Assembly (NCBI RefSeq): GCF_963676685.1
Contig: NC_092349.1
Location: 50,778,001 to 50,842,000, forward strand
Length of the DNA: 64,000 bases
DNA from: Mytilus edulis
Taxonomy: Eukaryota
Direction of reading: 5' to 3'
The translations under genes and the position numbers were made by a program. The notes under the pieces were generated by a model, which saw only the letters and a program-made list of their open reading frames with translations, did not search any database and had not been told where the DNA came from. Shown here piece by piece: positions 33,601 through 62,499 of the stretch (positions within the stretch are counted from its first letter, which is position 1; every line of letters begins with the position of its first letter).

Positions 33601-36600
33601 TAAACAGTCCTTAGAAGTACATCATCTTTTCGCATTCAAGTGAACTGAACCCATTGTTAAATTATATTTTCAACTTTTTACTATTTGTTTAATTGGTTCA
33701 AGGTTTATGTATCAGCACCTGATAGTCTTTTTTGCCTGAACCCAATTATTTTTATACTCACAGGTCAGGCAATTTCAAAGGGTAAGCTTAAAGGCCACTC
33801 AAAACTTTAAAGAAAATTTCTTACTGTGATTGAAAGTTATGGAATTCGCTTATAACGGATAACCATGAATATTTCCCCTTTGTTGTCATCACAACCCTTT
33901 CTTTTTTGTAAAATTCTGACATTACCTACAACGACATATTACAGAAGATTTTCCTAGATAAAATCAATATCAGGGATTCCAGTCAAGTAGAACAATCTGC
34001 TTATCTTGATTGCCCAATTTATTCTCGTTTGATGTGATTGGTTTCGTGTTACTCAATATTTTGTATAACTTTGTCGACTTGTTGGTAATTTTTTCTAACA
34101 TTCGATAGAAATGGTTTGACACTTTCTTGTCGCCTGGTAGCGTTATTACGTGTCTTTGATATCTCGGCCAACTTTGTTTGTTTACAGCATTACTAAACAT
34201 TACTAAATTATTATTGCTACAAATATTAAAAAGAAGATGTGGTATGATTGCAAAATAGACAACTCTCCACAAGAGACCAAATGACACAGTAGACAACATT
34301 TATAGGTCACCGTACGGCCTTCAACAATGAGCATATCGCATAGTCAGCTATAAACGGCACCGAAATGACAACGTAAAACCATTCAAACGAGAAAACTAAC
34401 GGCCTAATTTATTTACAAAAATTGTTCGAAAAACAAATATGTACCTTATAAACAAACGACAACCACTGAATGACAGACTTCCGATTTGGGAGAGGCACAT
34501 ACATTTACATGCAGAATGTAACATGCGGGGTTACATATGTAATCGGGATCCCAACCCGACTCTTAACCTGGGACACTGGTGTAGCATTACATAAAAGAAC
34601 GAACTATACAAATCTGTTGAAGAAGGCTTAACCCATTAGATGTACAAAACTTCAAATACTACGTATATAAGTGGACGTGGTCAGGTACTTGTATATCCCA
34701 ACAACATTAATACACTAAAAACAGATCTGACAACTAGTTCAAAGCCACTATCAACCAAAATAATACTCATGCATTTTAGACTAAATGATCAATCAGTACA
34801 CATCATACATCCAATGGATTTAGTGTAAAGAAGTCATAAACAGTCAGATAAAAACATGACCTTGTGCAATGCCAAGATACAGGTATCGACAGATTGTAAA
34901 ACTATGAATGTGTATGTGGCGAACAATAATAGTAAGTTTGCTTTTAATTTACTGATAACAAAATCAATGTGTATACAAATAAAAACAATATTTAATGATC
35001 TAATTACAGTGTTGAATTGGTAACCTTTTAGAACAAGTGTATTTAAAGGATCGATTAATTTACCAGAATCGTTTCTAAACGTATCCTGCTTGTAATAAGT
35101 TTTCTACAGGTACAACCACATCTTAATATCTATGGAAGCATTTAGTAAAGGTTTTAAGTAGTTTGTGGTAACGAAAGCCATGGCTTAAATTTTACCAGGA
35201 ATACATAGATTACGTTCGTTAAAACCAAAATACGTCACAAAAACACGGTAATAGCGAATGAGATGTGAAATATAAACACCGTAAGATGGTTCATAAGGAA
35301 CATTACCATCCAAAATTGAAAAATTAACAAAAAAGAAAGAAAAATCGTCCCTTTTGTCGTAAATCTTAATGTGGAGTTTTTCGTTTAAAACCGATATATC
35401 TAAATCTAGGTAAAGACAGTTATTATCGCTTAAGTTTAATTTATTTAAAGTAAGTTCCTTTGGGTAAAAGTTCGGCAGCATATTGAAAAAATTCTTAATT
35501 ATTTAACGAAAATGAAAAAATATCATCATGATAACGGTAAGTGTAGTTGACTCTATCAATTAAATGCAATTTAGACCGATCGTTTCTGAGTTTTGTCATA
35601 AACTGTGATTTATAACAGAAAAAAAAAAAGACTTCTATACAAGGGACGCAGTTAGTGTCTATAGGAATACTTACAACTTGATAAACTTTGTTGCCGAAAC
35701 GTACATAAATATTATCAAGGAGAAAACTAATAGCTTCAATCATCATTTTATTGTAAGATGTAATCTATCTGTTACGGAATGTTGATAAAGTCATCGGATT
35801 AAATACATTTAATTTAAATAATAAGTTGTTAGTATTTTATCAATTTTGTAGAAAGTTTTGTATAATATAGACATGTGCTAATCGGTAGTAAGTGCAATAC
35901 GCTGTTTTATCATATGTTTAGTAGTAAATACAGTAGTTTTGCATATGTGATAAATAGCCTGCTGTTTAATCCATATCGCGCAACTTTGATGCGCACCCTT
36001 TATCGCATACCCTTTATCACACCCCTACTTTTTTTTTTTTTTTTTTTTTTTTACATAAAGTCAGTTTTGGTTTTTTTTTTTGCTTAAGAAAATTTTTCCT
36101 CAAACTAGGTAATTTTTTTGAATGACGTCATTGTTTGGTATGTGACGTCACGAACGTCGAGTTTTCATATTGTATACATGTAACGTCACAAACGTCAAGT
36201 TTTCATATTTTTTGGCACACTAAATGCAACTATGAAAAATACAAAACACACAAATTTAATAATAAACAAAATATTTTTAAAACAACAGCACGCAAATTGT
36301 AAGGTAACCCAGGTGCTTCGGATAAGTAATTGAGCAGTTCTTTTAAGGCCTTTGAAACAAGACAAAAGTAGAACTGAAGGTAACCCAGTGCTATGGATCA
36401 GAAAACAGTTCATATAATATAATACTCTTCTGTTGAAATATATGATAAAGTGTATAATACATGGCAAAATCCGTATCACATGCCGTATCACCCTCGACCA
36501 ATATCATCCCTCGGGCCTAAAGGCCCTTGGGCTGATATTGATGTCTCGGGATGATACGACATATGATACGGATTTTGCCATGTATTATTCTCTATTTATC

Positions 36601-38932
36601 ATATATTTAGTACAAAATACAGCTATTTTGTATATCTAATAAAGGTTGTTTTTCCAGTCTGTATCACCTACCCTGTATCGCATACCCCGTATCGCATAGC
36701 TAAACCCGTATCGCATACCCCGTATTGCATGGTAAAACCCGTATCGCATACCTTTTTTTTTTTTTTTTTTTTTTTACATAAAGTTTTTTTTTTTTTTTTT
36801 TGCTTAAGAAAAAATGTCCTCAAAATAGGTCATTTTTTAATGACGTCATTGTTTGGTATGTAACGTCACGAACGTCAAGTTTTCATATTGTATGTGACGT
36901 CACGAACGTCAAGTTTTCATATTGTATGTGACGTCACGAACATCAAGTTTGCATATTTTTTGGCACACTAAATGCAACTATAAAAAATACAAAACACTCA
37001 AATAAATACAATAATAAACAAAATATTTTTAAAACAGCAGCAGGCAAATGGTAAGGTAACCCAGGTGCTTTGTATAAGCAGTTATTTTAAGGCTTTGAAC
37101 CAAGACAAAAGCAGAACTGAAGGTAACCCAGTGCTAATCTATCGGGATCAGAAAACAGTTCATATAATATAATACTCTTCTGTTGAAATATATGATAAAG
37201 CGTATAATACATGGCAAAATCCGTATCACATGCCGTATCACCCTCGACCAATATCATCCCTCGGGCCTAAAGGCCCTTGGGCTGATATTGATGTCTCGGG
37301 ATGATACGACATATGATACGGATTTTGCCATGTATTATTCTCTATATATAATACTATCACTTAAAATACTGTCGATTAATCAAAGAACCCTTAAATCACT
37401 TTTACAAAGAAATCCGGAATAATTGACATAATCCGGTTTAATGTTATAAATAAAAGGAGAACACCTATTTGGCTACTATTTTTCTAATTTACTAAAGTAT
37501 ATTTATAGATACATCTTATATCACTATTGTTAATTCGAAAAGGATATTAAATAACTGACGTTCATTGGATTTAAAAACAATGTAATGCTAGTAGTTAAAG
37601 GCAAAAGTAACATCATTGTTTGAAGCGACAAAAAATAAATATAAGAAAAGCGTTAATGGTTACTGATTTAATTAAGCTTAACATTCAAGTTGAAAACTTA
37701 CAGATATAAACTACATCATATCTATTTAGCATACGTGAATACTGTTGTAATCCGCAGACACAGGTATATGTAGAGTTGAAGTCATCAAATGATAGATTTG
37801 TTATCTTCAGACCATAATTCAGAATAGTATCACCGGTTATTTCATACTTTGTCGGATTTGTAGAGACATTATTGAAAGATAACACTTTGTAGTCCCGTCC
37901 TCCAATCCACTTTTTACCACCTCTAGATAGACAGGAAGTTCCATTACATTTCAATAATGCATCTTTGCCATTGATTATATATTTCGATTCTATATACCAT
38001 TCTACTATAAAATGAAAATGCAACGATGTATAAAAATGCAAAGATAGATAAAAATTAAGACATATACTATATACCATTCAGTACCTTTACTCTGTAATAT
38101 CACTTCATTTGTTTGCCAATGAAAATCCATAGCGTGCATATAAAGGAGGGACGAAAGATACATGATTAACAGTCAATCTCATAGATCGAAAATAAACTGA
38201 CAACGCCATGGCTACAAAAGAAAAAGACAAACAGACACATAATAGTACACTAGACAACAACGTTGAAATCTAAAGACTAAGCAAGTCGAGCCCCACCAAA
38301 AACTGGGGGGGGGGGGGATCTCAGTTAAGTAATCTCTGTAAAGTGCCCTTTTGTTTTCTTTGCATTTCTCATGTATTGAAATGGTACATATATATCTTTT
38401 ATATGTAAAAAAAAATCAACAAAAAGCATATTTCTTGATTATTTCAAAGAGAGATACATTTCATAAACATTGTTTATTATGTGCATGCGTGTTGTAAAAA
38501 CAATTTTCTGCAGCTCCCGTGGTTGATTTGAGCATATCACAATATGGCCATCAATCGACCTTCCCGTACTCTTAGTAGGACCACAACGTTTCGGGTTTTA
38601 CATAACGCAGCTTCTTTCGGTAAGGAGAGTGATAAAAAAAGACGCTTACTGACAGACTGTAATGCACCTACATGACACTAATTTAACATATCACTATATA
38701 ATATAATCATCCAAAAGCTTATCATCTGTACTTTCTGTTTCGCCCGTTCATAGATAATTCGTACATTGCAACTTTTGTTAAATGAAGGCTAAGGTCAAGA
38801 ATGATCAATCTGATTTAAACAAGAATTAAACAAAATTCCCTTGCTGAGAACCATAATACAATACTTACCTTCTGAAACTGTGAACGAGCAAAGATATATC
38901 GTCGTATATATAAACATATATATTCTTATCAT
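21508..38932 (-). CDS. Spliced host gene: type I membrane protein with signal peptide, Ig-like domain, second Cys-containing extracellular domain and TM helix (~264 aa). join(complement 38869-38932, 37702-38004, 28572-28666, 25073-25289, 21508-21623)
   Basis: Five stop-free exons with canonical AG/GT boundaries and matching intron phases (1,1,0,1). Total 795 nt = 264 aa plus stop. Domain order SP-Ig-domain 2-TM is coherent. Assembled by eye, no transcript evidence. Confidence 0.8.
22330..22900 (+). mobile_element. Penelope-like RT C-terminal (thumb) fragment with 3' region
   Basis: NYPQLSSNKPTSPAYGIRISQLIRYSRA*S*YSDF, homologous to 26208-26559. Confidence 0.7.
25073..25289 (-). CDS. Coding exon 4: TPSRSN...DCNGFVDVFCEVGPLNYT...DNCK
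   Basis: ttttag| acceptor (phase 0) and AAAG|gtaagt donor (phase 1); 217-nt open frame with three Cys and N-glycosylation sequons (NIS, NYT). Confidence 0.78.
25454..25839. mobile_element. Kolobok-type MITE
   Basis: TTAA|GGATGTTTGCT ... AGCGAACATCC|TTAA: short TIRs, GG/CC ends, TTAA TSD. Confidence 0.75.
26208..26826 (+). mobile_element. 5'-truncated Penelope-like retroelement: RT C-terminus and 3' UTR
   Basis: LHLEIDNEG..KTKLYD.R.D.SF.IVNF.FLSSN.PAAPAYGVYISELIR.SRAC...FYGRHHELVDRY. Boundaries defined by the uninterrupted paralogous flank at 30959-31360. Confidence 0.85.
28572..28666 (-). CDS. Coding exon 3: (Y)PPHIATKAISKEFLKVEMNVYPLQKCYLLFT
   Basis: ttttttag| acceptor (phase 1) and |gtatgt donor (phase 0); open frame; VYP.xxC motif resembles the start of a second Ig-like fold. 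Confidence 0.72.
29126..29705. mobile_element. Kolobok-type MITE; truncated second copy at ~29808-29885
   Basis: TIRs AGGAGTAGGTTCAGTAAG and CTTACCGGACCTACTCCT, flanked by TTAA-like tcaa/ttga. Confidence 0.7.
30529..30935. mobile_element. Hairpin MITE with CAC..GTG ends and TA flanks
   Basis: TA|CACAGCTACTT..TGCATAGG and CCTATGCAAGTAGCTGTG|TA; imperfect inverted arms of ~140 bp. Confidence 0.8.
31400..31652 (-). mobile_element. Penelope-like RT C-terminal fragment
   Basis: YISQLIRYSRACSHYTDF...QKLLQKGY...FYGHHHKLVDLY. Confidence 0.8.
32888..33060 (-). mobile_element. Truncated Helentron-associated element (HINE / pearl-like)
   Basis: Terminal hairpin ATGCCCCATTTATGGGCAT next to a (GTTC/GTCC)n microsatellite. 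Confidence 0.6.
34228..35750 (-). mobile_element. Penelope-like element 3' portion: RT at ~35100-35750 plus long 3' UTR (repeat family C)
   Basis: FLLDNIYVRFG.KVY, RYHDDI (YxDD), YPKEL.L, YLDLDI, IYDKRDDFSF..VNF..L.GN.P..PSYGVYIS.LIRY. The UTR matches copies at ~52160-52700, ~57408-57960, ~62160-62500 and ~21780-22030. Confidence 0.82.
35998..37346. repeat. Tandem duplication (750-bp period); each unit ends in a ~145-bp palindrome
   Basis: ORFs at 36433 and 37183 are near-identical. Palindrome taatacatggcaaaatccgtatca...gggcctaaaggccc...tgatacggattttgccatgtatta at ~36450-36595 and ~37200-37345. Confidence 0.9.
37702..38004 (-). CDS. Coding exon 2: Ig-like (V/I-type-like) domain
   Basis: ttttatag| acceptor and |gtaagt donor; 303 nt, symmetric phase 1-1. 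Pattern LLKC..KKW..YGLKITNLSFDDFNSTYTC matches Ig B-strand Cys, C-strand Trp, E-strand LxI and F-strand D..YxC. Confidence 0.88.
38869..38932 (-). CDS. Coding exon 1: signal peptide MIRIYMFIYTTIYLCSFTVSE
   Basis: tgtag|gATG acceptor just before the ATG; hydrophobic 21-aa leader; phase-1 donor GAAG|gtaagt. Confidence 0.75.
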
Positions 38933-41728: not shown

Positions 41729-44078
41729 TGTGACAGTGGAAAAAGCAGCTTCGTTTATTATTTTGGACTTTAATACAAAATTCTCAATTGTTATATTTTA
41801 GACTTTAATTCTCTGTGTTTTATAATTCATTTTATTTTATAATTTCGTTTCTATTTACATTTCGTATCCAGGACTTAAAATCAACATGCTTTTTAATTCT
41901 TAGTTTGGACATTGAGTGACATGTTTCAATCTGTTACCTAATTAGTGACATTTTATCTTATTCATAATGTATGTTCTTAATTGTCATAATCAGATTATCA
42001 TTTAATATCTATTCTTCAAGTTCTAAAAATAGTTTAATCTTTGTCAGTGAACAATATCACTCAAATTAATTGTTATTTGTTATGTCCATACTTGTTAATT
42101 CAATTGTGTATAAATACTTGTTTATAATTTCTATAAGCAAGATTTGGACTCAGGACTTTACACTGAACACAGTCCATCTGTAATAAAAGTATTCGTATTC
42201 CATGCTGAATTATTTGTTTATTCATCGCTAGTTCCAGAGTCTCAGAAGTTAGTTTTCACCAGAGTTTCAGTCTCAGAGTTCTCATTGCTATTCACAGCAA
42301 TCGTTCGTTGTGTGATCAGGTGCATCACACAGTTTCAGTAACAAGAGGCCATTCAGTCAGGCTCTTGTTGCACACCCGACAAGTCACCCAGTTTCCCCGG
42401 TGACATTTTGGTGGACGACGACGGCGTGCTGACTTCTATGCTCAGCACACGATCCAGAGACCTCAAGCAGCCAAGCGAGTTCCCAGACAAGTAGCGTAGG
42501 CAATATTCAGCGATGGAGTACAGCTTTCGACCACAATGGAGACCATGGAACATCCAGTCAGGTGACAGTCCAGCATGTGGGAGATGCGGTAAATTTCATA
42601 AACATTATATTGTAACTCGATCAATCAAAGATGTTATTCGTGTGGAAAATTCGGACATTATTCCACTAAGTGTTTTTCAAAAGCAGCTAAGGACATAAAA
42701 CGTACAACAGTTCATGTGAAATCAAGAAAGCAAAAGCAGCGCGATTCAGCTAGGATAGACAGCTATATTGAACGCAAAAACATCATCCGAGCTTTACCGT
42801 TCTCAGGTATGAGAAATTCAGCGTTCGTGCAATATTTGGACATTGCAAATGTGCTCAAAACAGAACTAAAAAGTGTGAAGCAGAAAATTTCAAAGGAAAG
42901 GAATACAAATCTAGAACAGCAAAAGTGCATCGAGGCACTCAAAATTCAATTAAAGAACCAGCAAACCATCGAATCAGAGAGAGACCAGTTCAAGCAAGAA
43001 CTCGAAAACCTTCGTCAACAGAAAGAAGAAAGTGCTTCGCGTATAAACGTACAGGAATATGTGAATCAAATTCAAGAATTACAGGAGCAATTAATTGAAA
43101 AAGACGGGACTGTTAAAATGGTACAAGATCTTTACTTTATGCGTTCAACCGAATTTACAGACGAAATACAAACATTGAAAAATGAAAAATCAGACCTTCA
43201 TTCCAAACTTCAATCTCAAGAAAATTCTGTCAAACAGCTGACAGAAGAACTGCAAAGCCTTCGGCATGAAAACTACTTGTTGTCTTCAAGTCAAAATCAA
43301 CAGCGACCCAACTATAACAACAGACACTATAACAACCGCAGAGGCGGCCGATTTAGATAGTGCTAAGTCCGAGGACGGACTTAATTGGGAGGAGAGGCAT
43401 ATGTGACAGTGGAAAAAGCAGCTTCGTTTATTATTTTGGACTTTAATACAAAATTCTCAATTGTTATATTTTAGACTTTAATTCTCTGTGTTTTATAATT
43501 CATTTTATTTTATAATTTCGTTTCTATTTACATTTCGTATCCAGGACTTAAAATCAACATGCTTTTTAATTCTTAGTTTGGACATTGAGTGACATGTTTC
43601 AATCTGTTACCTAATTAGTGACATTTTATCTTATTCATAATGTATGTTCTTAATTGTCATAATCAGATTATCATTTAATATCTATTCTTCAAGTTCTAAA
43701 AATAGTTTAATCTTTGTCAGTGAACAATATCACTCAAATTAATTGTTATTTGTTATGTCCATACTTGTTAATTCAATTGTGTATAAATACTTGTTTATAA
43801 TTTCTATAAGCAAGATTTGGACTCAGGACTTTACACTGAACACAGTCCATCTGTAATAAAAGTATTCGTATTCCATGCTGAATTATTTGTTTATTCATCG
43901 CTAGTTCCAGAGTCTCAGAAGTTAGTTTTCACCAGAGTTTCAGTCTCAGAGTTCTCATTGCTATTCACAGCAATCGTTCGTTGTGTGATCAGGTGCATCA
44001 CACAGTTTCAGTAACAAGAGGCCATTCAGTCAGGCTCTTGTTGCACACCCGACAAGTCACCCAGTTTCCCCGGTGACA
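41729..44078 (+). mobile_element. Non-autonomous LTR retroelement without pol, 2350 bp, very young
   Basis: 677-bp LTRs (41729-42405, 43402-44078), TG...CA, no differences seen by eye. 4-bp TSD GTTG. PBS-like TGGTGGACGACG 3 nt after the 5' LTR. Polypurine tract GGGAGGAGAGG just before the 3' LTR. Confidence 0.95.
42513..43360 (+). CDS. Internal ORF of the LTR element: tandem zinc knuckles, long coiled coil and N/R/G-rich tail (~282 aa), one frameshift near 42600-42610
   Basis: CGRCGKFHKH in frame 0 joins YCNSINQRCYSCGKFGHYSTKC in the -1 frame, which stays open through the 214-aa E/Q/K-rich ORF ending YNNRRGGRFR*. Confidence 0.75.
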
Positions 44079-46589
44079 GTTGTGCCGAATACAAAAAAGG
44101 TTTATATTTTTATGACATTAAACTAATACTGTTTTTATAATGCAACTTAAAATAATTTATTGATAACTTTTTAAATCGTAACATAAATTAATCCCTTAAT
44201 AAGTCCCTAGTTGTGGCGAAAGTGTTCCATGATGAAATTGACATTACACAAAATATAGCTGTGTTACTAAATTTAGGAAATAAAAACAACTAGTTGCAGT
44301 TAAAACGAAGAAATCCTCAAAATGAATCATTTTGATTATTTGTAACTATAGGATGTATAGTTCGAATGATAATGCAACTTTCTAGACTGACGTTATGGAT
44401 TTCAATTATAATCTATGTATTCCTGCTAAACTATTAAGGTTTATGACCCCTTCTGTAGCCATTTTTATAAGAAATTTTCAAACTTCAATTGTATCAAAAC
44501 TACAGATATAATGAATAATAGAGACAAGTCATTTTGTACATTTACCGAGGGGAAACTTGATGCAAAGCATTATAATTGACTGTTTCATTGAAATCAATAG
44601 AAAAAGAGTACTTAGTGGCAAATAAACCAAGATTTTTATAGAAAATCCACAGCCTTTATTACAGAGATTTTTGTTCTAAAATTTGAAACATATATTACTC
44701 ACTTGCTTTTCTATGATGTGCTAGTGTTTATTTTTTACAACAATTTCTAAACATCCTTTAGATTCCAAAATACCTCGTGCTGAGTAACTAAAGTCGAACG
44801 CACCCTAAAGGTGTACTTGATTTGGCTATATTTTTTATTAGTTTTAACCAATACTTACATAAATAAACTTGTTTTAATGAGATCAATGCTAGCACTGCAT
44901 GCAGCAATACTACATCTATCAGTCGTCAAATCGCCAAATACGAGAAAACAAGGATAAAGACTGTGGATTTTCTTTAAAATTTCCATATGTTTAGCATTGA
45001 ATCAACACAAGGGTATATAATCCTTAAGGTTCCGCTAAGGTAAAAATTTCAATCTGGTGGTGCAATTATCAAATGTACATGTTTTGTACCTTCAACAAAT
45101 TACTGAGGGGTGAAATGTTTTCAAATTTTGGAATTTTTACCATTATTTGTGTTAACATACAGGGCTTGTATCAAACCTTAAAATTCACTACACTATTCCA
45201 ATGTTTAAAGTTGAAAATGCATCTTCACAACACACATTTTTTCAAAAAACAGAACATTCTTACATCAGTGTTATATCACCCAAAATTGGCACCGAGTATT
45301 CTTTATATTTCAATGCAGGTCGAGCTATACCTTCAACTTGCTAAAAGACATCTGTCTTTCTATTAAGTTAAGAATAAAAGAGTGTCTCACGCTGTTGGAT
45401 AGCCGCCATTATTACAATGTTGTTGCATGATTGAATTTTTACTATTTACAGTTGTTTAATTTGCTTGATCTCCCTTGACACTTTATGACTTGCAAATTCA
45501 TTTGTGTATGAGAATATTTAGCTGTAATTTAAAAACATATTTTACCATTTACACAGTAAAATAAACTGTTGAATTGGATGTTCTGTGATCCTTCTGAAAA
45601 CGAAAGTAGAAGTTCATGATCTGATATCACACCGCACTTTCGAATATAACAAAAATAGCATTTTTTTTAAATTGAATGATTGTTTTGATAATTTTCATTA
45701 TATATTTCAGGTCAATTAAGTTTTTGGACATTAAACAATCGATTTAATCATTAAATTCTAATGCGAAAGAAATAACTATATGAGAGAACTCACGTCCGGT
45801 TTGAAGAAGTACGGTTGATCTTTTGATCAAGTGAGTAAACATTGGGAAAATATCACTTTATTTGGTAAGGAATTGATCCTATATATTCAAATATTTGTTT
45901 AGTAAATATATATCGCTAAAAAGCAATCATCAGATGTCACAGTTAAGTCCTTAACGGGAAAATAAATACAATGTAGACCAAACAGACATGTTTACACATG
46001 TTTCATTTTGGTGAGTTTGTATTACTTTTAAATTAAATATTATTAAAATTATGGAAATTAGAATGGTTAAAATATGGGTAAGAAACACATTGCAACCTAG
46101 GTAAGTGAAAATAAAATTATATTTAAAAATGTTAAAAAAACGTGTATGGAAAGCAAGGTTGACAAAAGGAAGCCATTACATGTTTTGACAATATCAAAGA
46201 AGAATTTATTATGGGCAGTAAAAGTAAAAAGAACAGTGTTTGGTAGAAGTTTGGGTAGGCATAGCAGAGTAAGGAGAGGGAGGTATTTAGAATTAAAAAA
46301 AGTCTAGAAACATCAAAAAAGACATTTTGAAGATAAAGATAAAGGAAATACATAATTTCTATGGCACTACTTTGAAAAAAAAACCAGATGTCAGTCATCT
46401 CTATTTATACCGCATTTTCCTATGGTGATAACTTCAGAATGAGTATACGCAAAGTTAAAGACCTTATTCCAAAAGGATACAGAATGATGAACTAAGACTG
46501 TTTGCAATCACATGTTTCGGAAATAACAATGCATGTATGTTTATGTGTAGAGGCAATGAAGATTTCGTCTGAAAGAAAAACTATCAAGC

Positions 46590-48955
46590 TACAGACAGAG
46601 GTGAGAACTTAAGGTTTAGCAAGTGTGATGATGGCAGAGTTCCAAGGGAATTTCAAGAAATTTAAATTTCATACGAGTCCCAAGGTCCCTTGTTCAAAAC
46701 TTTACGACATCAATGTGCGTGCCGTATGGGGTAGTATGGTCACTGGCAATGGCCCATCACATTTGAATGAACTAATGGCCACAATGAATTCACCTGGTTT
46801 GTCTCAACCAACTTTTACATCAATTGAAACTGACATTGATGTTGAGCACTCTATATTGGGACGAGATATGAAGCTAGCAGGTCAAGAAGAAAGACGTTTG
46901 GCAATTGAAATGAATGATTACTATCATGAGGTTCCTGCTATTACAGTAATAGTAGATGGAGGTTGGTCAAAGAGGACTCATAAGCATACATATAATGCTG
47001 CAGGTGGGGTTGCTATTATAATTGGGAAAGAAACTAAGAAACTGCTACACATAGGTGTTCTGAATAAATACTGCTATATTTGCTGTCAGAATGACAATAA
47101 ACCCAACACATGCTTTAAGAATTGGGACAAAGATAGCCAGTCCATGGAAAGTGACATTATTTAGTAAGGGTTTAAACAGGCAGAAGAAAAACATGGTTTG
47201 CGGTACATAAGAGTGGTAGATGATGTGGACTCTTCAGTTGTTGCAACTATCAGGGATGGTGTGCCAGGATGGGGAAGACAGGTAACTAAGGAGGAATGCG
47301 CCAACCATATTATGTAAATGTTATCGTTCCAACTTGGAAAAGATGGTTACTGAAAACCCACTGTACAAAGGGAGACACCATTTGTCTAAAACAATGCGAG
47401 TGCGTCTGGTTAGTGCATAACGATGTGCCATCCGCTTTAGGTAAAACGAACTAAAAGAACAAACAGTAGATGTATCAATTGCAATTAAACGACTTCGCCA
47501 TGACATCATAAATTCGGTCAATCATAATTTTTGTCAACATGATCACTGTTCTGACTTCTGCCGCGCTAAAACCCAACAAAAAGATACATCACCTGATATT
47601 CATACATGTACCTCGTCAAATTCTGATCATTAAACAACATCTTCACCCACCATAATAGAAAACTCTGATGATCCAGATCGTTTAGATAGTCAGATAGATT
47701 TCTGGTCAGAAGGATCGTCCAAGTCCAGACTTGGTATAACCATACAGTACAGTAATGTAGAACAACATATAATTAAGGATGTCTTGCTTAACAGAATAGC
47801 TGAGAAATCTGACCGCCTTATCAGCAACATAACAACTAACCTGGCAGAGAGTTGGATGCACATCCGAACCAAATTTGATGGAGGAAAGGTTTTTAACCTT
47901 TGTAACCGTGGGTCATGGCATGCAAGATGCTATGGAGAAGCTCTTCGTATGAATTTAGGTCCACAGTGGTCATGTCAGGCTTGGGAAATTTGTACAGCGA
48001 CAGAACCAGGAAAACATTTTACAGCTAGGTACAAACGTAACGAACAGATGCTAAAAAGTCAAAGCCAGATGTCAAACAAAAAAGGTGGAAACAGAAAATC
48101 TCATCTCTGAAAGGCTGCACTACAAGGAAAGCTAGACAATCGTATGGTACAGATGTTATTGAGGTTAGTACTGATTTATCTACCACAGAGCTTGCAAAAC
48201 TTCAGAATGTTTTTTTGGATACACACATCAACTTTTCGGCAGATCAATGTAAACAAATTACACTATCAACATTTCAACAGTGTCAATCTGGTCTTTGGCA
48301 TTCTGAACGTCATAAAAGAATAACTGCTTTAAACGTTGGCTCTATCATTAGACGAAACCCATCTTTACCAATAAATAAATTTGTCCGTAATTTGCTGTAC
48401 TCCCAATTTAAAGGAAATAGGCATACAAGAAATGGCATTCTACAAGAAGATACCACCATAGAGGAATATAAGCTTAAGAAAGCAGAAGATAATGAGAATA
48501 TCTGTGTGAATAAAACCGGTCTTGTTATTCACCCAACCAACAAATGTTTAGCTGCTTGTCCAGACGGGATTGTTACACCATCAACTGACGGCACTGGACT
48601 TATTGAAATAAAAAACCTTTTGCATTCAAAACCAATCAACCTTTTTGAAGCTGGTAATTCAAACAATTTCTGCCTGATAACTGTCAATGGAAATTTGAAG
48701 TTGAAGGAAAATCACCCTTATTTTTTCCAATGCCATGGCCTTCTGAATGTGTGTCACAAACCATGGATAGACTTTGTTGTGCGTACACTGAATCCATATC
48801 AGATGTTCATACAGAGAATTTGTCGAGATGTTTGTCTGGGAGGAACAAAACTCTATTACCAAAACTCAAAGCTTTCTTCACTAAGGCACTTTTACCTGAA
48901 CTTGCCTCACCACGAAAAGAAAAGAGCCAAGGCATTCGTAAACCTGGAATATGGG
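46590..48955 (+). pseudogene. Kolobok-type DDE transposase fused to a YqaJ/lambda-exonuclease domain, disrupted
   Basis: DINVRAVW, ITVIVDGGWSKR..YNA.GGVAIIIG..T.K.L..NKYCYIC, CFKNW..S.SME, KHGLRY, KEECANH, TNLAESWM; then W..ER.KRITA, GLVIHP..LAA.PDG, LIEIK, HPYFFQ.HG.L, WIDFVV. Several stops and frameshifts. Element ends not resolved. Confidence 0.85.
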
Positions 48956-49066
48956 TGAATTCAATATTAAGTTTGAAATCAATCCAAAAACAGCCTTGTT
49001 TAAAATTCAGTTGTTTTCAGAACAACATTTGATTTAATGAACTTATCAGGGTACTTTTTTTTTTAT

Positions 49067-49615
49067 AAGAAACATCTTCCAATTATCTTGCATGTATACA
49101 GGTATTGTATAAAATTACCAGCCTATATCATTTTCTGTCATGCATGTATTGAAAAGAAACATCTTCCAATTATCTTACATCTACACAGGTATTGTATATA
49201 ATTGTCAGCTTATGTCATTTTCTGTCATGTGTGTATTGAGAAGAAACATCTTCCAATTTTCTTACATGTATACAGTAATTGTATAAAATTACCAGCCTAG
49301 GTCATTTTCTGTCATGCATGTATTGAGAAGAAACACCTTCCAATTTTCTTACATGTACATGTATACAGTTATTGTATAAAATTACCAGCCTAGGTCATTT
49401 TCTGTCATTCGTGTATTGAGAAGAAACATCTTCCAATTATCTTACATGTATACAGGTATTGTATATAATTGTCAGGCTATGTCATTTTCTGTCATGCATG
49501 TATTGAGAAGAAACATTTTCTAATTATATTTATACAGGCATGACAGGTATTTGATTCACTTTGTAATTGTCAGCCTCTGTCATTTGCATGTATTGAGAAG
49601 GAAAATCTTCCAATA
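49067..49615. repeat. 87-bp minisatellite, ~6 copies
   Basis: aagaaacatcttccaatt... recurs at 49067, 49154, 49241, 49328, 49421, 49508 and ~49598. Confidence 0.95.
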
Positions 49616-50216
49616 TTCATTATAGTACAAAATGTAGGTAATCCAATACAGTCTCAATTATAATGATTATAATTGAAAACATATATATATATATAATTAT
49701 ATTTTTATTTAGAAACAATACATATTATGAGAGGAGGTGAAATAGGTCGTATAATTTTTCTATACTCCTTAATTATTTTCCACAGATATACATAAATATT
49801 GATGACCAAGAGCCCAGAAATATAACTACCTCACAACTCTAAAAATATTAACGCCAAAAAAGACCTAATAGAAAACAACTCTAAAAATATTAACGCCAAA
49901 AAAGACCTAATAGAAAACATTTTTCACCAAAATCACATTGTTTGTCTATTCATTAAAATAGTGGTATAAACACACATTTTTAAAGTATTTTCCAGATCTC
50001 AGGATGAAAGGGAAACATTTTTTTTTTATATCAAAAGGGGTGTCTATTATATCATAACGATTTTCACTATGGAACAAACCAAATTTGACAATCATACAGC
50101 TTTTATTTTTATTATTCACAATATTGACATTATCATTGTGTGAGGTGTTGGTCTGAAACACTGAGTATATTAATGGAATATTCTTATGATATAACTTTTA
50201 TAATTTCATTTTGTTG

Positions 50217-50361
50217 ATTCCAAAACCAGTATAAAAAGAAAGAGGAAGATAATATCAGCTTCAACGAATAGAAGAAAGACCAAAATACAGAATCCAAGAC
50301 CAGAAACTGCATCAGATTCCAACACTCTTGAAGCTAAAGAAACTGCACAAATTAGGCTAAC
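50217..50361 (+). pseudogene. Putative basic linker exon (KRKRK, NLS-like) of the transposase gene
   Basis: Open frame KTSIKRKRKII...AQIRL ending in a phase-2 donor AC|gtatgt. The acceptor reads TG instead of AG. Confidence 0.5.
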
Positions 50362-51163
50362 GTATGTAATATTATATAATATCTAGTTACCCATAAATCC
50401 TACAAAATTTCATGATTTTTAATTCGAAATGTTATTGAAGTATGCACATCTACAAACAATGTATCATACCAATACATCTTACCAAATGTCAAAGCTGTTT
50501 CAGTAGTTGTGTTCACAATACATATCGATTAATTTTGAGATAGCGGTTACATTTTACTGAGAAAAATACATCATCCAATAGTTACATTTTTCCTTAAAAA
50601 AGGTACATCATCCAATAGTGGAGAACATAACAAGCTATCTAGAGGTCACATGTTGTTCTTAAACCCAAGTAAACAAACACAACTCATCACCGAAGATTGG
50701 TGCATTTCTTTGACAAGAATAAGATATATGAAAATTGTTGTTTTATTAATTTTTTTCCAATATAGTCATTATCAAAAAGTGGTACAATTTACATTAAAGA
50801 TGTACATTTAGCCATATTCATATGAACATTAATGAATTTATGCCATTTCAATATAAACATAGTTATATATATATATAGTTAAAACCAAAATTCATGTTGG
50901 GAAATGATCATGTGATTATCTTGTACACGACATGTACATGTTTGTACAAAACGAAAAACACATTTGTATTATGTAAGTTATGAGTACGCTTACACTATAT
51001 AGAACATCTTTCTTACTAGATGAGATACATTGTATGTATTGCATCTAAATATCTAATACAAGACATACAATGTACATGTATACCTTTTTAAAAGATAGAT
51101 ATATATTAAAAAAACAACTAAGTAACTTGTTGTTTTAATTTTTGTTAGTGAGTTTTTATTTAG

Positions 51164-51404
51164 GAGAGGAAGGCAGAAACAGACCAAATTTGTTGGACGT
51201 AGCAGGAAACAACAGTGGATAATTGACGAGGATGCAAACCATAAGGAATGGTATAAAGGAACAGTTGAGTCATTACTTAAAGGGACAGAGGGAAAATTGA
51301 ATGCAGTCTATGAAGTGTTGTTTGATGGAGATGATGATGTTTATGAAATTGACCATTTAGTTGCAGATTATCATTCTGGTTCTGTACAATTTTGTGACTT
51401 ATGA
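51164..51404 (+). CDS. Terminal exon encoding a Spin/Ssty (spindlin)-like Tudor domain, probably the transposase C-terminus
   Basis: tttag| phase-2 acceptor, then open frame RGRQKQTKFVGRSRKQQWIIDEDANHKEWYKGTVESLLKGTEGKLNAVYEVLFDGDDDVYEIDHLVADYHSGSVQFCDL*. Resembles the spindlin repeat pattern VG....W....WKGTV....Y.I.YDG....Y..L..DY..G. Absent from the ORF track. Confidence 0.65.
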
Positions 51405-53949
51405 TAACCATAAAACACTTACAATGTTTGACTTTTAGAAATATCCCGATAATAGTTTTGAAGTAACACAGCAGGGGAATCCGAATCCAGACACATTCTT
51501 TTTTCATTTCATGTAGTACGAATAGTCATAAAAAAATTCTGAGAGCCAGATTTGATTCTTACATAATATATTTTCTAGTTCTAAATTATCAGTCATTTAT
51601 ATAAATAAACTATTATAGGTATTTGTCAACATTTGAAATGGCGTTTGTGTAATTTGCAGCTTGCATTTTTATTTAATACAATAAAATAAGGTTAATATCC
51701 ACATACCTCAAATATGTATAGTGATTGATTTTTTAAATACAATGCAGATTATAGGTCTTAAACTGTAAATGAAATTCCTAAGTCAACAATAAGGTGAAAC
51801 TGATTGTGATACAATAATTGCAAATTTATCACAATGTCTATAATAACATCTAAGTGTCCATCAAAAATAATAGCCTTCTTTATACACTTATTTCGGATTC
51901 AAAACAGATAGGTAATTCCAAATCCATCTCACAGGAAATCATAATCAGTCATGTCAGTACAACCTTCAAATAAAATATTGAAATATATGAAACTATTGCA
52001 TTGCATTATTAAAAATACATGTTGAAGTTCATTTTTGAAACATTCAAATTGCAATTTGATGAGACAAAATTTACCATCTATAATAAACATGTAAATTTTT
52101 ATCATGGTATCTTTGTTACTGTATATCTTAAATAAAAGTAACAAATATCTATAATAAAGCCCATACTACATAGTCAGCTATAAGAGGCCATGAACCAACA
52201 AATGTAAAAACAAATAAAATGAGAAGACTAATGGCATTAGTTATGTACAAAATTGAGGGAAAAACAAATATGTAACACATAAACCAAAGACAACCACGGA
52301 ATTACAGGCTTCTGACTTGGGAGACACATATATACTGAATGTAGCAGGGTTAAACATGTTAGCTGGATCCCAACACTCCCCCTAACCTGAGATAGTGGTG
52401 TAACAGTACAACATAAGAATGAACTATAAAAATCAGTAGAAAAAAGCTTAACTCATCAGATGGATACAAATAGAAATAAATCCAACAAAAAACACAGAGA
52501 GGATGTGGGAGTTTAATTGTACATCCCAACAACTAGGAGGACACTACATACTGATCCTAAAGTACAAGAAGTTACTGACAGCTATTTCGAAACCACTGAC
52601 AACGAATGAACAAAATCATGCATCTAAGACGCAATTATCAATCAATAAAAAATGAGAATACACATCATAAACAGTCACACAGTCAGAGAAACACATGACC
52701 TAAAAAAAAAAGGTACCCTTAATTTGTGTGGGCACATAATAAATTGTGGTATTGGCAAAATTTAGCTGACAAAGTCGTATGTTTCATTCTTTTCATTATG
52801 ATGTTGACATAAAGACTGTTGATTATGCTTGGTTATTGTGTATAAAGATATCCAAAGCAAGCACCATATGTTGAATAGGTGATCTTGTAGCTCACTTAAA
52901 CAGATCAAAAATATATCTTATGTTGAAGTTCTTGTTGTTAGCTCTCAATTTCCTTTTTGTATTTCATTTTTGGAGTTGGTAATGATTCATTGACCCATAT
53001 CTGTTTTATATATATAATGTCTAAAAAAAAAAAGAAGCAACAATCAACATTCAATCAACTTAGTTGTGGATCAGTTTGTGCAAATAAAGTCTTTGAAACT
53101 TTCAGGAAGCTGGAATTCTTAGATAAAAAAAAATCTTTTTTTGTAGCACTTATTGGAGGCAATACATCACCTATAGATACTCTGCCCAGAACTATGTAAA
53201 TATACAATCTATAAAAAAAGAACACAAACGTGGGAAATATATATCTTTAGCCATTTGTAACTTTTGTTTATGATTTTAGCTTAAAATATCAGGTACAAAA
53301 CCTTGAATCAAATAAAAGAAGGCCATACAAAACTATATACCCTAGTATATACTGAATTATTTCTTCAATCTGACTTAAAATGTTGGAATACACGAAGGGA
53401 CCAAGAGTGGACAGTATTGATAAGGAAAATAGCAAAAACCTATTTTTCCTAGCTTAAATTCATGAAGCTGTAATTAATTTAATGTGCCCATAGTAACAAA
53501 GTATTTTTTTTTATTCTGTATAGATGAGGTTTTTATATGTAACATCACTCCCCCTCTTTTTTTAAAAAGGTGGTTTAAAATTTGAAAAGCACTGAAGTCT
53601 TTAAAACATGTAATTTAGAATAAACATCTTCCTATTTCTATTTACATCAATGTTTGTATAGTGTGTTAATTTTATTTCTAAAACATTTATATTAATATAT
53701 ACTAGTTTTCACAATATGGCCCTCCATACTTTAAACAAAAAAGTAGTTCCTCATCAAATATGGCCGACTATTTTATTTTATGAAAGAAAAGTTGTAATGG
53801 CCAAACATGCTTTTATGGTTGCATTTTATTCAAAATAAATAATAGCTTGTACTACAAATTTCTATTCTCTATAGTTTTATTCATATTTTTCAGAATTTTG
53901 TGTACCTGGAAATGCTGTGGATTTATTCAAAAAGCTATTAAGATGATGA

Positions 53950-55736: not shown

Positions 55737-57407
55737 CACTACAAACCATTCAAGTCTGAAATGGCCTATATCTGTACTCGACTGAACTGATTTTTACTCG
55801 ACCAGTCTGAATTGGTCTGACTTTTCCTTGACATTACTCGACCCCAGTCTGAACCATACTTGACTGTACTGGATCGTACTTGACCCTTATCTTTGCAGTT
55901 GAAAATAGTCTGAACTATTACTCGACCAGTCTGAAACAGTCTTAACCCATTCTCGACTTGTACTCGACCTATTTTTCCAGTCTGAACCATACTTAACCAA
56001 AGGTCTGAACAGTACTCGACCAGTCTGAACCATACAAGACCAAAAAACTCTACTTTTTTAACTGTTAAAATAAATTTCTATTTAATGACATATATAACAA
56101 CAGCCAACAAAATTTATAAAAAAATTTAACCTTATATTAGAAATATATGTATGATTATATTTAGGATGAAAAAAAATATATTATATAAAACTTATATCAA
56201 AAAGGGATAATATTAAATAAATAAATAAAATTGTTTTTCTGATTAGTGGTGAAATATAATGAATAACCTCTGCTTGTGGCAAACTCATTAATAAGATTAC
56301 ACCTGGTCAGAGGTATTAAATTCTAAAAATCCTGTTTAAGTTAAATAACAAGGCCTTTCAAATATACATGTATGTACTAAATAAGTAATACACGAATTGA
56401 AGAAAATAGGGCTTTCTTTTTACCTGTAAAACACACATGTAGTGAGGTAATTAGAACAAGTGCTTTCTGTATGCCATGTTAATTTGACAAAAAAAAATAC
56501 TTAAATTAATTGAAATAAATTTCTACTGTTACTTTGGAATACATTTCTTTTTTTAAAAAGGTTATCAAGGATTGCTATGAAAATTCTATTATCATGATTA
56601 CATTAAATTCTTGGTTTAATAAAACAAAACAATTAAGCTTTATTTTTTTAAATTTATTAAGTTGTTTTATATACTATTTTATATATATATTAATAAAAAA
56701 AAAAAACATTCACTGCATTATTAATTCAACTCAACTAAATCTTTACTAGGTTTAAGTTAATGGTGAAAATAGTTCAGTTACCATAAAATACTTCCGAAGT
56801 ATTCATAAAATTTTGAATGAATATTGACAATATTAGTCATTTGTTAGTCACAATTCATTTTTTTAGATTATATGATCAGCTTGTTTTATTTATATTTTAA
56901 AAGTTGATATATATTTTTACGTAAGTGTTGATTAATATTGTGTTGAGGTTATATTATGATTGATTATTGTGAAATTTTAATTTCAATACTGTATTGAATA
57001 CATTTTTAATTTCAATTTGTTGTTCAAATTTCATTTTTATTTAAAAAAAATCCTAAATTGACTAAATTCAGTTGATAGATACAAAGAATATGTCTAGGTT
57101 GGTTAAGACTTGGTCGAGTATGGTTCAGACTAGGTCGAGTATGGTTAAGACTTGGTCGAGTATGGTTCCGACTAGGTCGAGTATGGTTCAGACTAGGTCC
57201 ATTACGGTTCAGACTAGGTCGAGTACGGTTCAGACTAGTATAAAATGGTTAAGTACTGGTCAAGTACACATTCAGACTGTTAAGTATGGTTCAGACTACA
57301 GTCGAGTATTATCAAGTAGATCTCAGACGAATTCAGACTGGTCGAGTAAAAATCAGTACAGTCGAGTACAGATATAGGCCATTTCAGACTTTTAATGGTT
57401 TGTAGTG
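55737..57407. mobile_element. Non-autonomous CACTA/EnSpm element, 1671 bp
   Basis: TAT|CACTACAAACCATT...AATGGTTTGTAGTG|TAT. TIRs >100 bp, 3-bp TSD, 21-bp subterminal repeats (ggtcgagtatggttcagacta) in opposite orientation at the two ends, non-coding AT-rich core. Confidence 0.92.
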
Positions 57408-60400: not shown

Positions 60401-61167
60401 CAGATCTAGAATCTTTTTCCAATTATTAATCAAAAATTCTTTTTCAGCCGTTTTCTGGTTTGGTTGTCTCCTTTTATTATGATGTGCAGTTGAATAACAC
60501 ATGTTCCTTTTACTGTCAAGAATACAATGTTTTAAATTGATGTATGCATCCTATAATCTTCAACAGCATTGATCCTGCTACTTGAAAAAAATTGTGCTGC
60601 TTTCAAATGGTGTTTCAAACTATGTCAGCACTCGAATGAAGCTGAGAAGTGTAACACACACTAACAAAAACACACATATGCAAAAACACAAAACAAAAAG
60701 AATACCATAGCAATCACTTTATTTCAGAAACATTAAGTTATGTCATATTCTTTGGTGAAAAGGTATAATTTGAACCTACACAAGTTTTTGAAAGAGACTA
60801 TAAATGAAAACCGAATTATATATTGTCTCCCCATAATGAAAGATTGCTGAGAAAATTAACCAGAGATATCAAACATTAAACACAGAGAGGGATTAGCAAA
60901 CATTTATTAATTATAGTTTGATAAACGTCAAAACAATTTTCCTTTAAAAATGAATATTCCTTTATTCCAATATAAAGATTTTGTTAGCTTAATTCACTGA
61001 CCGGAATAGAATTAAAAAAAAATACGAAACGAAGTTACCAAATTTAGAAAAACTTAAATTATTCCTTGATAAAAAAAACATCAACTAACATTTGGTGCAT
61101 CGAAAATCAAATACAGGTATGAAAGCGACAAGTATGGAACGCCACAGCTGTCTTATGTGGTTCTCTG

Positions 61168-61660
61168 ATATTACTTAATGTTGTTTTATCATTACTTAAT
61201 AATACTTTGTCTTTATTTGATATGGTTTTGACATTACGTAATGATGTTTTAATATAACTCAATATGAATAGTCATTACTTAATGATATTTCGATATTACA
61301 CGATATGATTTCGTATTGACTTGATATAATTTTGTCATTACTCAATATGGTTTTGTCATTACTCGATGTGGTTTCACCATTATTTAATATGGTTGTGTCA
61401 TTAGTCAATGTGGTTTTAACATTACTTGATGTGTATTTGACTTGACGTAATGTAATTGTTTCATTACATGATGATATTTTGTTATTTCGTAATGATGATT
61501 TGTCTATTCTTTATATGGGTTTAACATAACGTAATGATGTTTCAAAATTTGACCATTTTACACTACTTGATGTGCTTGTTTCATTATTTAATGTGGTATT
61601 GTCATTCTTCGATGTGGTCCTGTCATTCTTTGATGTGGTTATCGCATTACTTGATGAGGT
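61168..61660. repeat. Degenerate 21-bp tandem array
   Basis: About 20 copies of cattacttgatgtggttttgt-like units. Confidence 0.8.
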
Positions 61661-62499
61661 AAAACCACGTGACCAATTCGAAAAAAACCTGTTCTATTTT
61701 TAGATAGATTTCTATGTTGCATGACTGTGCCTTTAATGCATTAGGCCATCCATCTAATTAGTATTCAAACTAAAGTTAGGGTTATTGTTTAAGTTAAACT
61801 TTGAGTGAGTTTTCGAATGAAAGTCATACTTATAATTAAAGTTCTAGTTAGAATTGATTTTCGAATTGGACTTCGAGTTTGAGTCACATTTAAAGGCAGA
61901 GTTCTAGTTACAACTTTGAATTTGAGTTACTTCTTGAGGTAGAGTTTTAGTTGGATTCCAATTGAAGTCTCATTTAGAAATTATTAAGATTTCGAATTGA
62001 AATTCGAGCTATTTTATATTTCTTTTTGAGTTCGTAATTAAATTTTCTATCACGGAACAAGGGCTTTTGCTTGGGCTTCCGAAAAGAGGGCTCCAGGATA
62101 TGCATACTACATAAACAATGTTGCAGTATACAAAACGCAACATAGGAGTTGAAATAAAGTTAGATGTGGTGTGATTGCCATGAGACAACTATCCACCAGA
62201 GTTTAAATGCAGTGGATGTAAGAAATCATATATCGGCAACCGTACAGCCTTCCAAAATCCGTATAGTCAGCTACAAAAAGGCCACCATGCACTATGTGAA
62301 AAACATTCAAACGAAAAAACTAACGGTCTATTTTACAAAAAAACAAATATGACACATATGTATACAACGACAAAAATTGAACTTCATGCTCCTGACTTGG
62401 ATCAGGTACATAAAGAAAGTGCACGTGGCGGAATTTAACATGTATGTGAGAGAACATCGAACTGTAACAGTAGTGTAACAGCACAACACGAGAAAAAAA

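Follow-up and report, generated by a model that had tools for sequence, protein, structure and literature searches.

A 64,000-nucleotide stretch of the Mytilus edulis genome (NCBI RefSeq assembly GCF_963676685.1, contig NC_092349.1, forward-strand positions 50,778,001 to 50,842,000; hereafter the window) holds, at about 45028-53931, what is by its sequence a dead copy of a KolobokE-type cut-and-paste DNA transposon. In the family to which this copy belongs (subfamilies labelled here A to H), the gene for a DDE transposase and a YqaJ exonuclease has a terminal exon encoding one Tudor domain with a spindlin-like predicted fold. Fusion of this domain to the transposase-exonuclease is supported by an intronless subfamily, a conserved phase-0 splice donor and public gene models. 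On balance, it is probable that this single transposon gene ends in a predicted reader of methylated histone H3 tails, which would tether the transposase to marked chromatin.

Chromo and PHD domains fused to retro- and DNA transposons have been described (10.1101/2021.11.30.470311), and a Tudor-bearing long terminal repeat (LTR) element, Gypsy-10_Ec32, has been called the first reported transposable element with a Tudor domain (PMC12477816). In the chromodomain Gypsy integrases, the Chromo/PHD fusions and Gypsy-10_Ec32, as predicted for the present element, a histone reader sits at the integrase or transposase end, where it is proposed to steer insertion or evade silencing; the present element differs in coupling a Kolobok DNA transposase to a domain of the Spin/Ssty type. 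Neither 'Spin' nor 'Kolobok' occurs in the available main text of 10.1101/2021.11.30.470311, and in the available parts of the KolobokE description (PMC9587614) 'Tudor' is absent from the main text, as are 'Tudor' and 'Spin' from the supplements (the fourth covered in part). No description of a transposon-encoded Spin/Ssty domain was found in the literature, Repbase reports, subscription journals and bioRxiv supplements lying outside the search. Spindlin domains may have been reported on CACTA elements, but no such report was found by a literature search that covered spindlin and CACTA. Reader fusions on mobile elements are already known; the present analysis adds an intronless fusion, a corrected exon map and RNAs that skip the enzyme exon.

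The terminal domain as part of the transposase gene

In subfamily D, the transposase, YqaJ domain, linker and terminal domain lie in single intronless open reading frames (ORFs) of 1020 and 1048 aa, which read ...PGVW-FEQ...Tudor-stop; the identical region is present in public protein P0001. In copies with introns, the enzyme exon ends at the tryptophan of a GIREPGxW motif, directly followed by GT in 12/12 motif matches (14 loci examined), as in the phase-0 donor after GIW that the earlier note on this DNA had placed at 48955. The same W-exon 2 join (GIW|FVDSK) is carried by public model P0163. The same parts are united in gene models of Tegillarca, Pinctada, Argopecten, Dreissena and Lottia, public gene models being predictions and not proof of transcription. 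An annotated protein of Mytilus galloprovincialis is 96% identical.

The terminal exon has 24 genomic matches, the window copy included (28 candidates scored). The DDE and YqaJ coding region lies upstream at 22 of the 23 other matches, the 23rd being an internal-deletion copy, so that the linkage with the transposase on which the earlier note's reading hinged is present in other copies. That the exon lies within the element, which the earlier note had left to checking, is likewise borne out: it stands between both terminal inverted repeats (TIRs), with TTAA on each side, in 6/7 A, 4/4 B, 1/1 C, 1/2 F and 1/2 H copies (13 copies, five subfamilies). For subfamilies D, E and G, one element end was found for each; within the stretches examined, neither the right TIR of the two intronless copies nor the left TIRs of E and G were located. 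In the reverse direction, the exon was present within 10 kb at 3 of 17 further YqaJ loci; the 14 without a Tudor match in 10 kb comprise 7 distant YqaJ families, 3 fragments or deletion copies and 4 others (L093, L094, L099, L108).

A profile search with the domain returned 240 proteins at E <=1e-3; word-index protein searches were weak, with 1 match among 76 candidates and 4 among 7991. Among the best 150 of these 240, 113 homologs reach the profile end, and in 105 of them at most 5 aa separate the end of the domain from the C-terminus; 11/46 scanned homologs have a PF20700 or YqaJ match. Of 30 proteins looked up, those with a named source belong to four Mytilus species and to Tegillarca, Pinctada, Argopecten, Dreissena, Mizuhopecten, Pecten, Mercenaria and Lottia.

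Between subfamilies A and B, the proportions of nonsynonymous (pN) and synonymous (pS) differences are 0.177 and 0.71 for the exon and 0.170 and 0.785 for the transposase, and pN is below pS in 21/21 subfamily pairs. Judged by these substitution patterns, the terminal exon is as conserved as the transposase and is under selection in the family. This evidence is a family-level one and does not extend to the window copy, whose exon is intact within chance (P ~0.24-0.31 for zero disablement over 79 codons; P 0.07 for so few substitutions). Selection on the Tudor exon of the window copy itself, or its domestication, was considered and is unsupported; the exon-2 acceptor of this copy has also been lost.

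Fold and predicted ligand pocket

The single exon sequence found nothing significant in Pfam or PDB searches. With an alignment of 10 members, Spin-Ssty was the commonest family (4/10 members, best E 0.0038) and SPIN4 was reached at E 1.1e-3; a 36-sequence profile matched 17 spindlin chains in the PDB at E 1.5e-5 to 2e-4 (next 0.15), and a 46-member profile that includes more distant matches reached spindlin at E 4.8e-9. An AlphaFold model of the domain (pLDDT 88.6) had only spindlins in the first 25 Foldseek rows given (ranks 1-38; TMq 0.63-0.69; best E 5e-3), and in VIA-align SPIN4 came first, with Z 8.6 and a root-mean-square deviation of 2.1 A over 65 residues, followed by the RDM15 Tudor at 7.0. 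The terminal domain is thus predicted to be spindlin-like in fold, as the earlier note had proposed from the letters alone.

SPIN1 has three integrated repeats with known cage residues, and its D184 holds H3R2 (PMC3967050). By alignment, W17 (51216), Y29 (51252), F52 (51321) and Y59 (51342) of the window domain, all on the plus strand, correspond to SPIN1 W62/W72/Y91/Y98 and F141/W151/Y170/Y177, and D67 (51366) corresponds to D184. The predicted four-residue cage is therefore complete in the window copy at the level of sequence alignment. Six aromatics, W/W/Y/Y/F/Y, had been singled out in the earlier note as a possible cage; the four just named fall on cage positions, but W28 and Y48 do not. 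Among 84 near-full domains, the four positions are aromatic in 78, 83, 79 and 58, respectively, and the D184 equivalent, kept in the window copy, is Asp in 79/84.

With spindlins 1-4 (PF02513; PDB 4uy4, 4mzg, 2ns2; PMC3967050) the domain shares the predicted fold with its C-terminal helix and extra strand, the four cage positions and the D184 equivalent. It differs in having a single repeat with ~17% identity, in scoring below the Pfam cut-off and in being carried by a mobile element in molluscs, the Spin/Ssty family being described as conserved in vertebrates (PMC3967050). The domain is best described as spindlin-like but outside the strict family, because equivalents of SPIN1 E142 and D189 are not conserved and one repeat is present instead of three. 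The domain has only 80 residues, and what it binds can be tested directly.

Identity and state of the element

Several features mark the element as KolobokE-type. TTAA flanks both ends in 10/10 complete copies tabulated, and the termini are of the Kolobok type, GG...CC (5'-RR...YY-3'), with 16-nt TIR arms and 0-2 mismatches, the window copy having the left TIR only. Intact copies carry the Kolobok DDE features VDGGW, GDGDS, ECANH, a C..H..H..C finger and LAESW. As in KolobokE, subfamilies A, B and D have a CCHC finger (CYIC...H.C) on the 3' side of the first D, and a PD-(D/E)xK lambda-exonuclease-like domain (SPDG...EIK) lies 3' of the transposase in the same ORF. The assignment is one by features, with a comparison by eye to two KolobokE alignment rows. 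The earlier note's reading of the coding region as a Kolobok transposase with an exonuclease agrees with these features and with the Pfam matches given below. Altogether, the TTAA duplication, RR...YY termini, DDE domain with CxxH, CCHC finger that follows the first D, finger that precedes the last E and downstream PD-(D/E)xK domain are those described for the KolobokE lineage, in which the exonuclease is likewise 3' of the transposase (PMC9587614); the present element differs by adding a linker exon, a C-terminal Spin/Ssty-like domain and transposase-skipping splicing.

Two other assignments were rejected. KolobokP needs long terminal direct repeats and a His-Me nuclease; here unique flanks adjoin short TIRs and the nuclease is YqaJ. 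MuDR/Mutator elements, whose name is attached to Pfam PF20700, have ~9-bp variable target duplications and long TIRs, and are excluded by the 4-bp TTAA and short TIRs.

The left TTAA target site of the window copy, which has no strand, is read directly at 45024..45027; TTAA is found on both sides of complete relatives. The left TIR follows at 45028..45045 (plus strand) and starts with GGTTCC, 5'-RR as in Kolobok; homology to the intact relative A_C3 begins at 45028, and the flanks vary among copies. The 3' non-coding part of the element spans 51405..53931 (plus strand), where homology to complete copies stops. The right TIR and the last ~180 bp were absent in a search to the window end and 9 kb beyond. 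Relative to A_C3, 7 stops and as many as 10 frame-shifting gaps have accumulated in the window copy, in addition to the lost right end. In subfamily A, five copies with an open transposase frame differ by 3-9 of 2799 nt, which indicates that the family moved recently.

The young A copies contain nested repeats that the window copy lacks, among them a ~235-bp repeat of intron 2 with high expression (L026:6496-6730), and a 540-bp segment at window 51620-52156 lies in opposite orientation relative to family A. A preference for insertion beside TIRs is possible but anecdotal, with two cases in which one TTAA is common to two Kolobok-like element ends (assembly G000, contig C327 near 17645, merged D_C327a:2655-2660; and contig C5, merged H_C5:17171-17176).

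Exon map and splicing

The window copy begins its gene with an upstream 5' exon at 45791..45864 (plus strand, as are all exons and coding domains here), which carries a 21-nt deletion in this copy and the start of which is placed by an ETS-like motif. Its donor at 45864|45865 has equivalents (L026:1354, L032:1821) that are spliced to exon 2 in RNA. The decayed transposase-exonuclease exon covers 46211..48954, corresponding to 933 codons in intact A copies; the transposase remnant matches PF20700 (E 6e-38), with motif landmarks D 46955, a CCHC finger, D 47228, CxxH 47297, a second finger and E 47847. The YqaJ or lambda-exonuclease-like PD-(D/E)xK domain at 48296..48652 (PD 48560, EIK 48605) matches PF09588 at E 2.9e-7, above the cut-off. 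A GT donor stands at 48954|48955 after GIW, as the earlier note had claimed, and a frameshift near 48833-48843 parts GIW from the YqaJ frame.

The phase-0 intron that follows GIREPGxW runs from 48955 to 50209 and holds an 87-bp minisatellite at ~49004-49630 and a non-conserved AG at 49784-49785. The exon map of the earlier note fails at this point: its phase-0 acceptor at 49786, taken as the start of a decayed exon, lacks the AG in 6/6 A copies that hold the segment (a seventh is without it), and 49786 is not used in RNA. The family acceptor is TTTCAG|TTTGTT, with AG in 7/7 A copies; it corresponds to 50209|50210, where the window copy has AT. Exon 2 (50210..50361) encodes a Lys/Arg-rich linker, likely a nuclear localisation signal; both of its ends are RNA joints in family A. 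From here on the earlier map stands: the KRKRK exon, its phase-2 donor at 50361|50362 and the phase-2 acceptor at 51164 are present, and the family-A equivalent of the 50361>51164 junction is seen in RNA. The terminal exon, with its one Spin/Ssty-like Tudor domain, occupies 51164..51404 with 79 open codons, and in the family the W-exon 2-exon 3 joining stays in frame through to the stop.

Introns have been both gained and lost in this transposon lineage. Subfamily H (L095, L096; G000 C3:36.24 Mb, C5:26.35 Mb) has an extra intron that splits the Tudor domain, and D has none in the ORF. Subfamily B has an extra intron in the 3' untranslated region just past the Tudor stop codon (L032:7000-8247), seen in 3/4 runs.

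RNA was mapped on one A copy (L026) and one B copy (L032), with four runs each (8 mappings, seven runs); raw runs were read to 6-18%, came from other individuals and unknown tissue, and for four of the seven the RNA nature was only guessed. In family A, joints 1353>5604 (5' exon to exon 2) and 5762>6791 (exon 2 to exon 3) occur in 4/4 runs, and the former removes 4250 nt, the whole enzyme exon. The two joints are supported by contigs from X1 and X4, by a single X21 read apiece and by 16 and 12 reads in X24. In family B, the exon 2 to exon 3 joint (5812>6741) is found in 3/4 runs and the skip joint in 2/4, with a variant acceptor in a third. The same enzyme skip is seen in subfamily F in a 961-nt Logan contig (protein P0009).

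A conserved motif on the minus strand at 45540..45554 (L026:1014; L032:1479), shared by A and B, is likely an outward antisense splice donor. At L032:1479, 11 X22 reads and one X2 contig exit the left part of the element into other sequence, the direction being that suggested by read strand, so that element insertions may create chimeric host transcripts. In X21, sparse reads over the transposase exon (L026:2542-3909) have a strand opposite to that of the junction reads and are possibly antisense RNA.

Proposed mechanism and alternative readings

In the mechanism proposed here, a rare long mRNA (GIW|FVDSK...) would encode a transposase-exonuclease-reader of ~1065 aa. This product would excise the element and reinsert it at TTAA, excision and insertion at TTAA being established for Kolobok, and its last domain would bind a methylated H3 tail and bias insertion toward marked, open chromatin among TTAA sites. 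Because insertions are strictly at TTAA, any effect of the reader would be a bias only. Default splicing would remove the whole enzyme exon as an intron, thus keeping transposase low, and may also supply a reader-only product. Intact near-identical copies exist, one of them intronless, which makes it possible to assay the proposed splice switch and the guidance of a DNA transposon's insertion by a reader.

A number of observations weigh against this mechanism. The proposal of the earlier note that the transposase is extended by splicing to a reader gains from the intronless subfamily, the phase-0 donor and the gene models, but the fusion joint from W to exon 2 was seen in 0/8 run mappings, and the joints that were seen skip the transposase. 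A usable in-frame AUG is also absent from the short RNAs of A and B, which may for that reason be non-coding; the lone AUG in the A short RNA leads into a stop and is missing from one A copy and from the window. As to the ligand, no Foldseek match had E <1e-3, the fourth cage position is non-aromatic in 26/84 domains (including those of subfamilies C, E, F and G), and SPIN1 E142 and D189 are without conserved equivalents. The domain is a single repeat that closes a transposon gene, against three tandem repeats of spindlin in a stand-alone host gene, and does not reach the PF02513 gathering score of 25 bits: the window exon gives no match and the Kolobok-type homolog P0008 reaches 17.2 bits. 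A test of CpG content, a weak proxy, gave no targeting signal, since 10 insertion flanks matched the background of 54 window bins (median 0.89 against 0.86, P 0.52).

A less probable reading is that the working product is a short linker-Tudor reader acting in trans on element chromatin, either against silencing or as a repressor competing with the transposase, with the fusion being secondary. The short joints dominate: in X4 contig depth is 122.8, compared with ~4-9 over the enzyme exon, in X5 it is 159 compared with ~2-5, X24 has 16 junction reads with the enzyme exon nearly bare, and the skip recurs in a third subfamily (P0009). In models P0054 (Mytilus), P0107 (Mercenaria) and P0024 (Mizuhopecten), linker and Tudor follow a basic N-terminal peptide similar to the transposase start, an arrangement that would give an AUG-started reader-only protein, and phase-0 GT donors lie within the first 30 codons in 4/5 subfamilies for which a start was found. 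However, the short RNAs observed in A and B lack the usable in-frame AUG, and no joint from an early transposase start to the linker was seen in the 8 mappings. Near-cognate starts closing the 5' exon, namely TTG in A, CTG in B and probably GTG in C, with none in F, were considered but are not supported, as M-F/Y starts amount to 2/33 against a background of 8%. In addition, the intronless subfamily D retains the domain in a fusion, and contig depth is a poor gauge of expression.

Somewhat less likely still is a fused, functional domain with a non-histone ligand, such as methyl-Arg or methyl-Lys on another protein (e.g., PIWI-pathway factors), DNA or the transposase itself. Tudor domains bind methylated PIWI proteins. 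The variable fourth cage residue fits such a ligand, and Tudor-like barrels that do not bind histones also score in the structure comparison (UvrD/PcrA Tudor, Z 5.5-5.8); pocket 1 of SPIN1 itself binds methyl-arginine (PMC3967050). Against this stand the three independent searches (Foldseek, VIA and profile), in each of which spindlin is clearly first, the retention of Asp at the H3R2-anchoring D184 position and the richness of the domain in acidic residues, as would be expected for a basic tail.

A passively carried exon, either captured from the host or arisen as a chance ORF and never joined to the transposase, is very improbable: the missing fusion joint, the chance-level intactness of the window exon and the YqaJ loci without Tudor match would fit it, but it is largely refuted by the intronless fusion ORF, the equality of pN in exon and transposase and the conserved phase-0 donor, and the C-terminal position and shared architecture across bivalve orders and a limpet also argue against it.

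Relation to the spindlin family

Spindlin, a reader of H3K4me3, has been reported to silence young transposons (bioRxiv 10.64898/2026.08.20.746118; PMC11499256), and SPIN1-SPINDOC is reported to silence young elements (PMC11512509). A term search of the available text of bioRxiv 10.64898/2026.08.20.746118 found no mention of an origin or domestication of spindlin.

An exon-by-exon search of the genome with PF02513, which gives a lower bound, scored 41 candidates and yielded at least 6 matches, all at the ends of transposase-like ORFs, with no stand-alone spindlin among them. These loci, L120-L125 (G000 C9:33979358, C14:39067669, C3:54167933, C11:14380808, C10:42496066 and C14:13750796), together with the proteins P0120, P0126 and P0111, represent a second transposase type, present in the same genome and in amphioxus, the source of P0126. 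Its terminal Spin-like domain is homologous to that of the Kolobok element (hhalign probability 99.5%) and passes the Pfam cut-off in 4/6 matches. The second type differs in a different-looking transposase, in the absence of YqaJ from the ORFs read, in a domain that scores closer to spindlin and in the two tandem repeats of P0111. Against SPIN1, its profile gives E 3.5e-26, vs 1.5e-5 for the Kolobok domain, the set being partly chosen with the Spin-Ssty model and hence biased.

The homology of the second-type domain to the Kolobok one and its higher score against SPIN1 make it plausible that spindlin originated from a transposon; by the same scores, spindlin probably has a nearer relative than the Kolobok form. 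The relevance to the origin of spindlin-type domains suggested in the earlier note thus gains general support, but with the second-type domain as a closer candidate than the Kolobok one. A broader and more tentative proposal, which we regard as possible without favouring it, is that Spin/Ssty was at its root a transposon-borne histone reader of at least two unrelated DNA-transposase types and was later domesticated as vertebrate spindlin, with the KolobokE splice switching between a chromatin-reading transposase and an abundant reader-only regulator. A single-repeat spindlin-like domain, selected on young transposases across molluscs, is a concrete candidate source of the spindlin family. If the broader proposal is true, vertebrate spindlin, which now helps to silence young transposons, came from a transposon reader.

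Neighbouring repeats in the window

Other repeats surround the Kolobok copy. A short LTR-type element at 41729-44078 has identical 677-bp direct repeats (TG...CA) and a likely 4-bp duplication; its ORF of 252 aa, encoding a zinc knuckle and coiled coil, lies at 42602-43360, with no other long ORF in the element. At 55752-57391 lies an element that has inverted arms of 116 bp together with tandem repeats of 21 bp; another 21-bp repeat array is found at 61143-61677 and a ~750-bp tandem duplication at 36026-37353.

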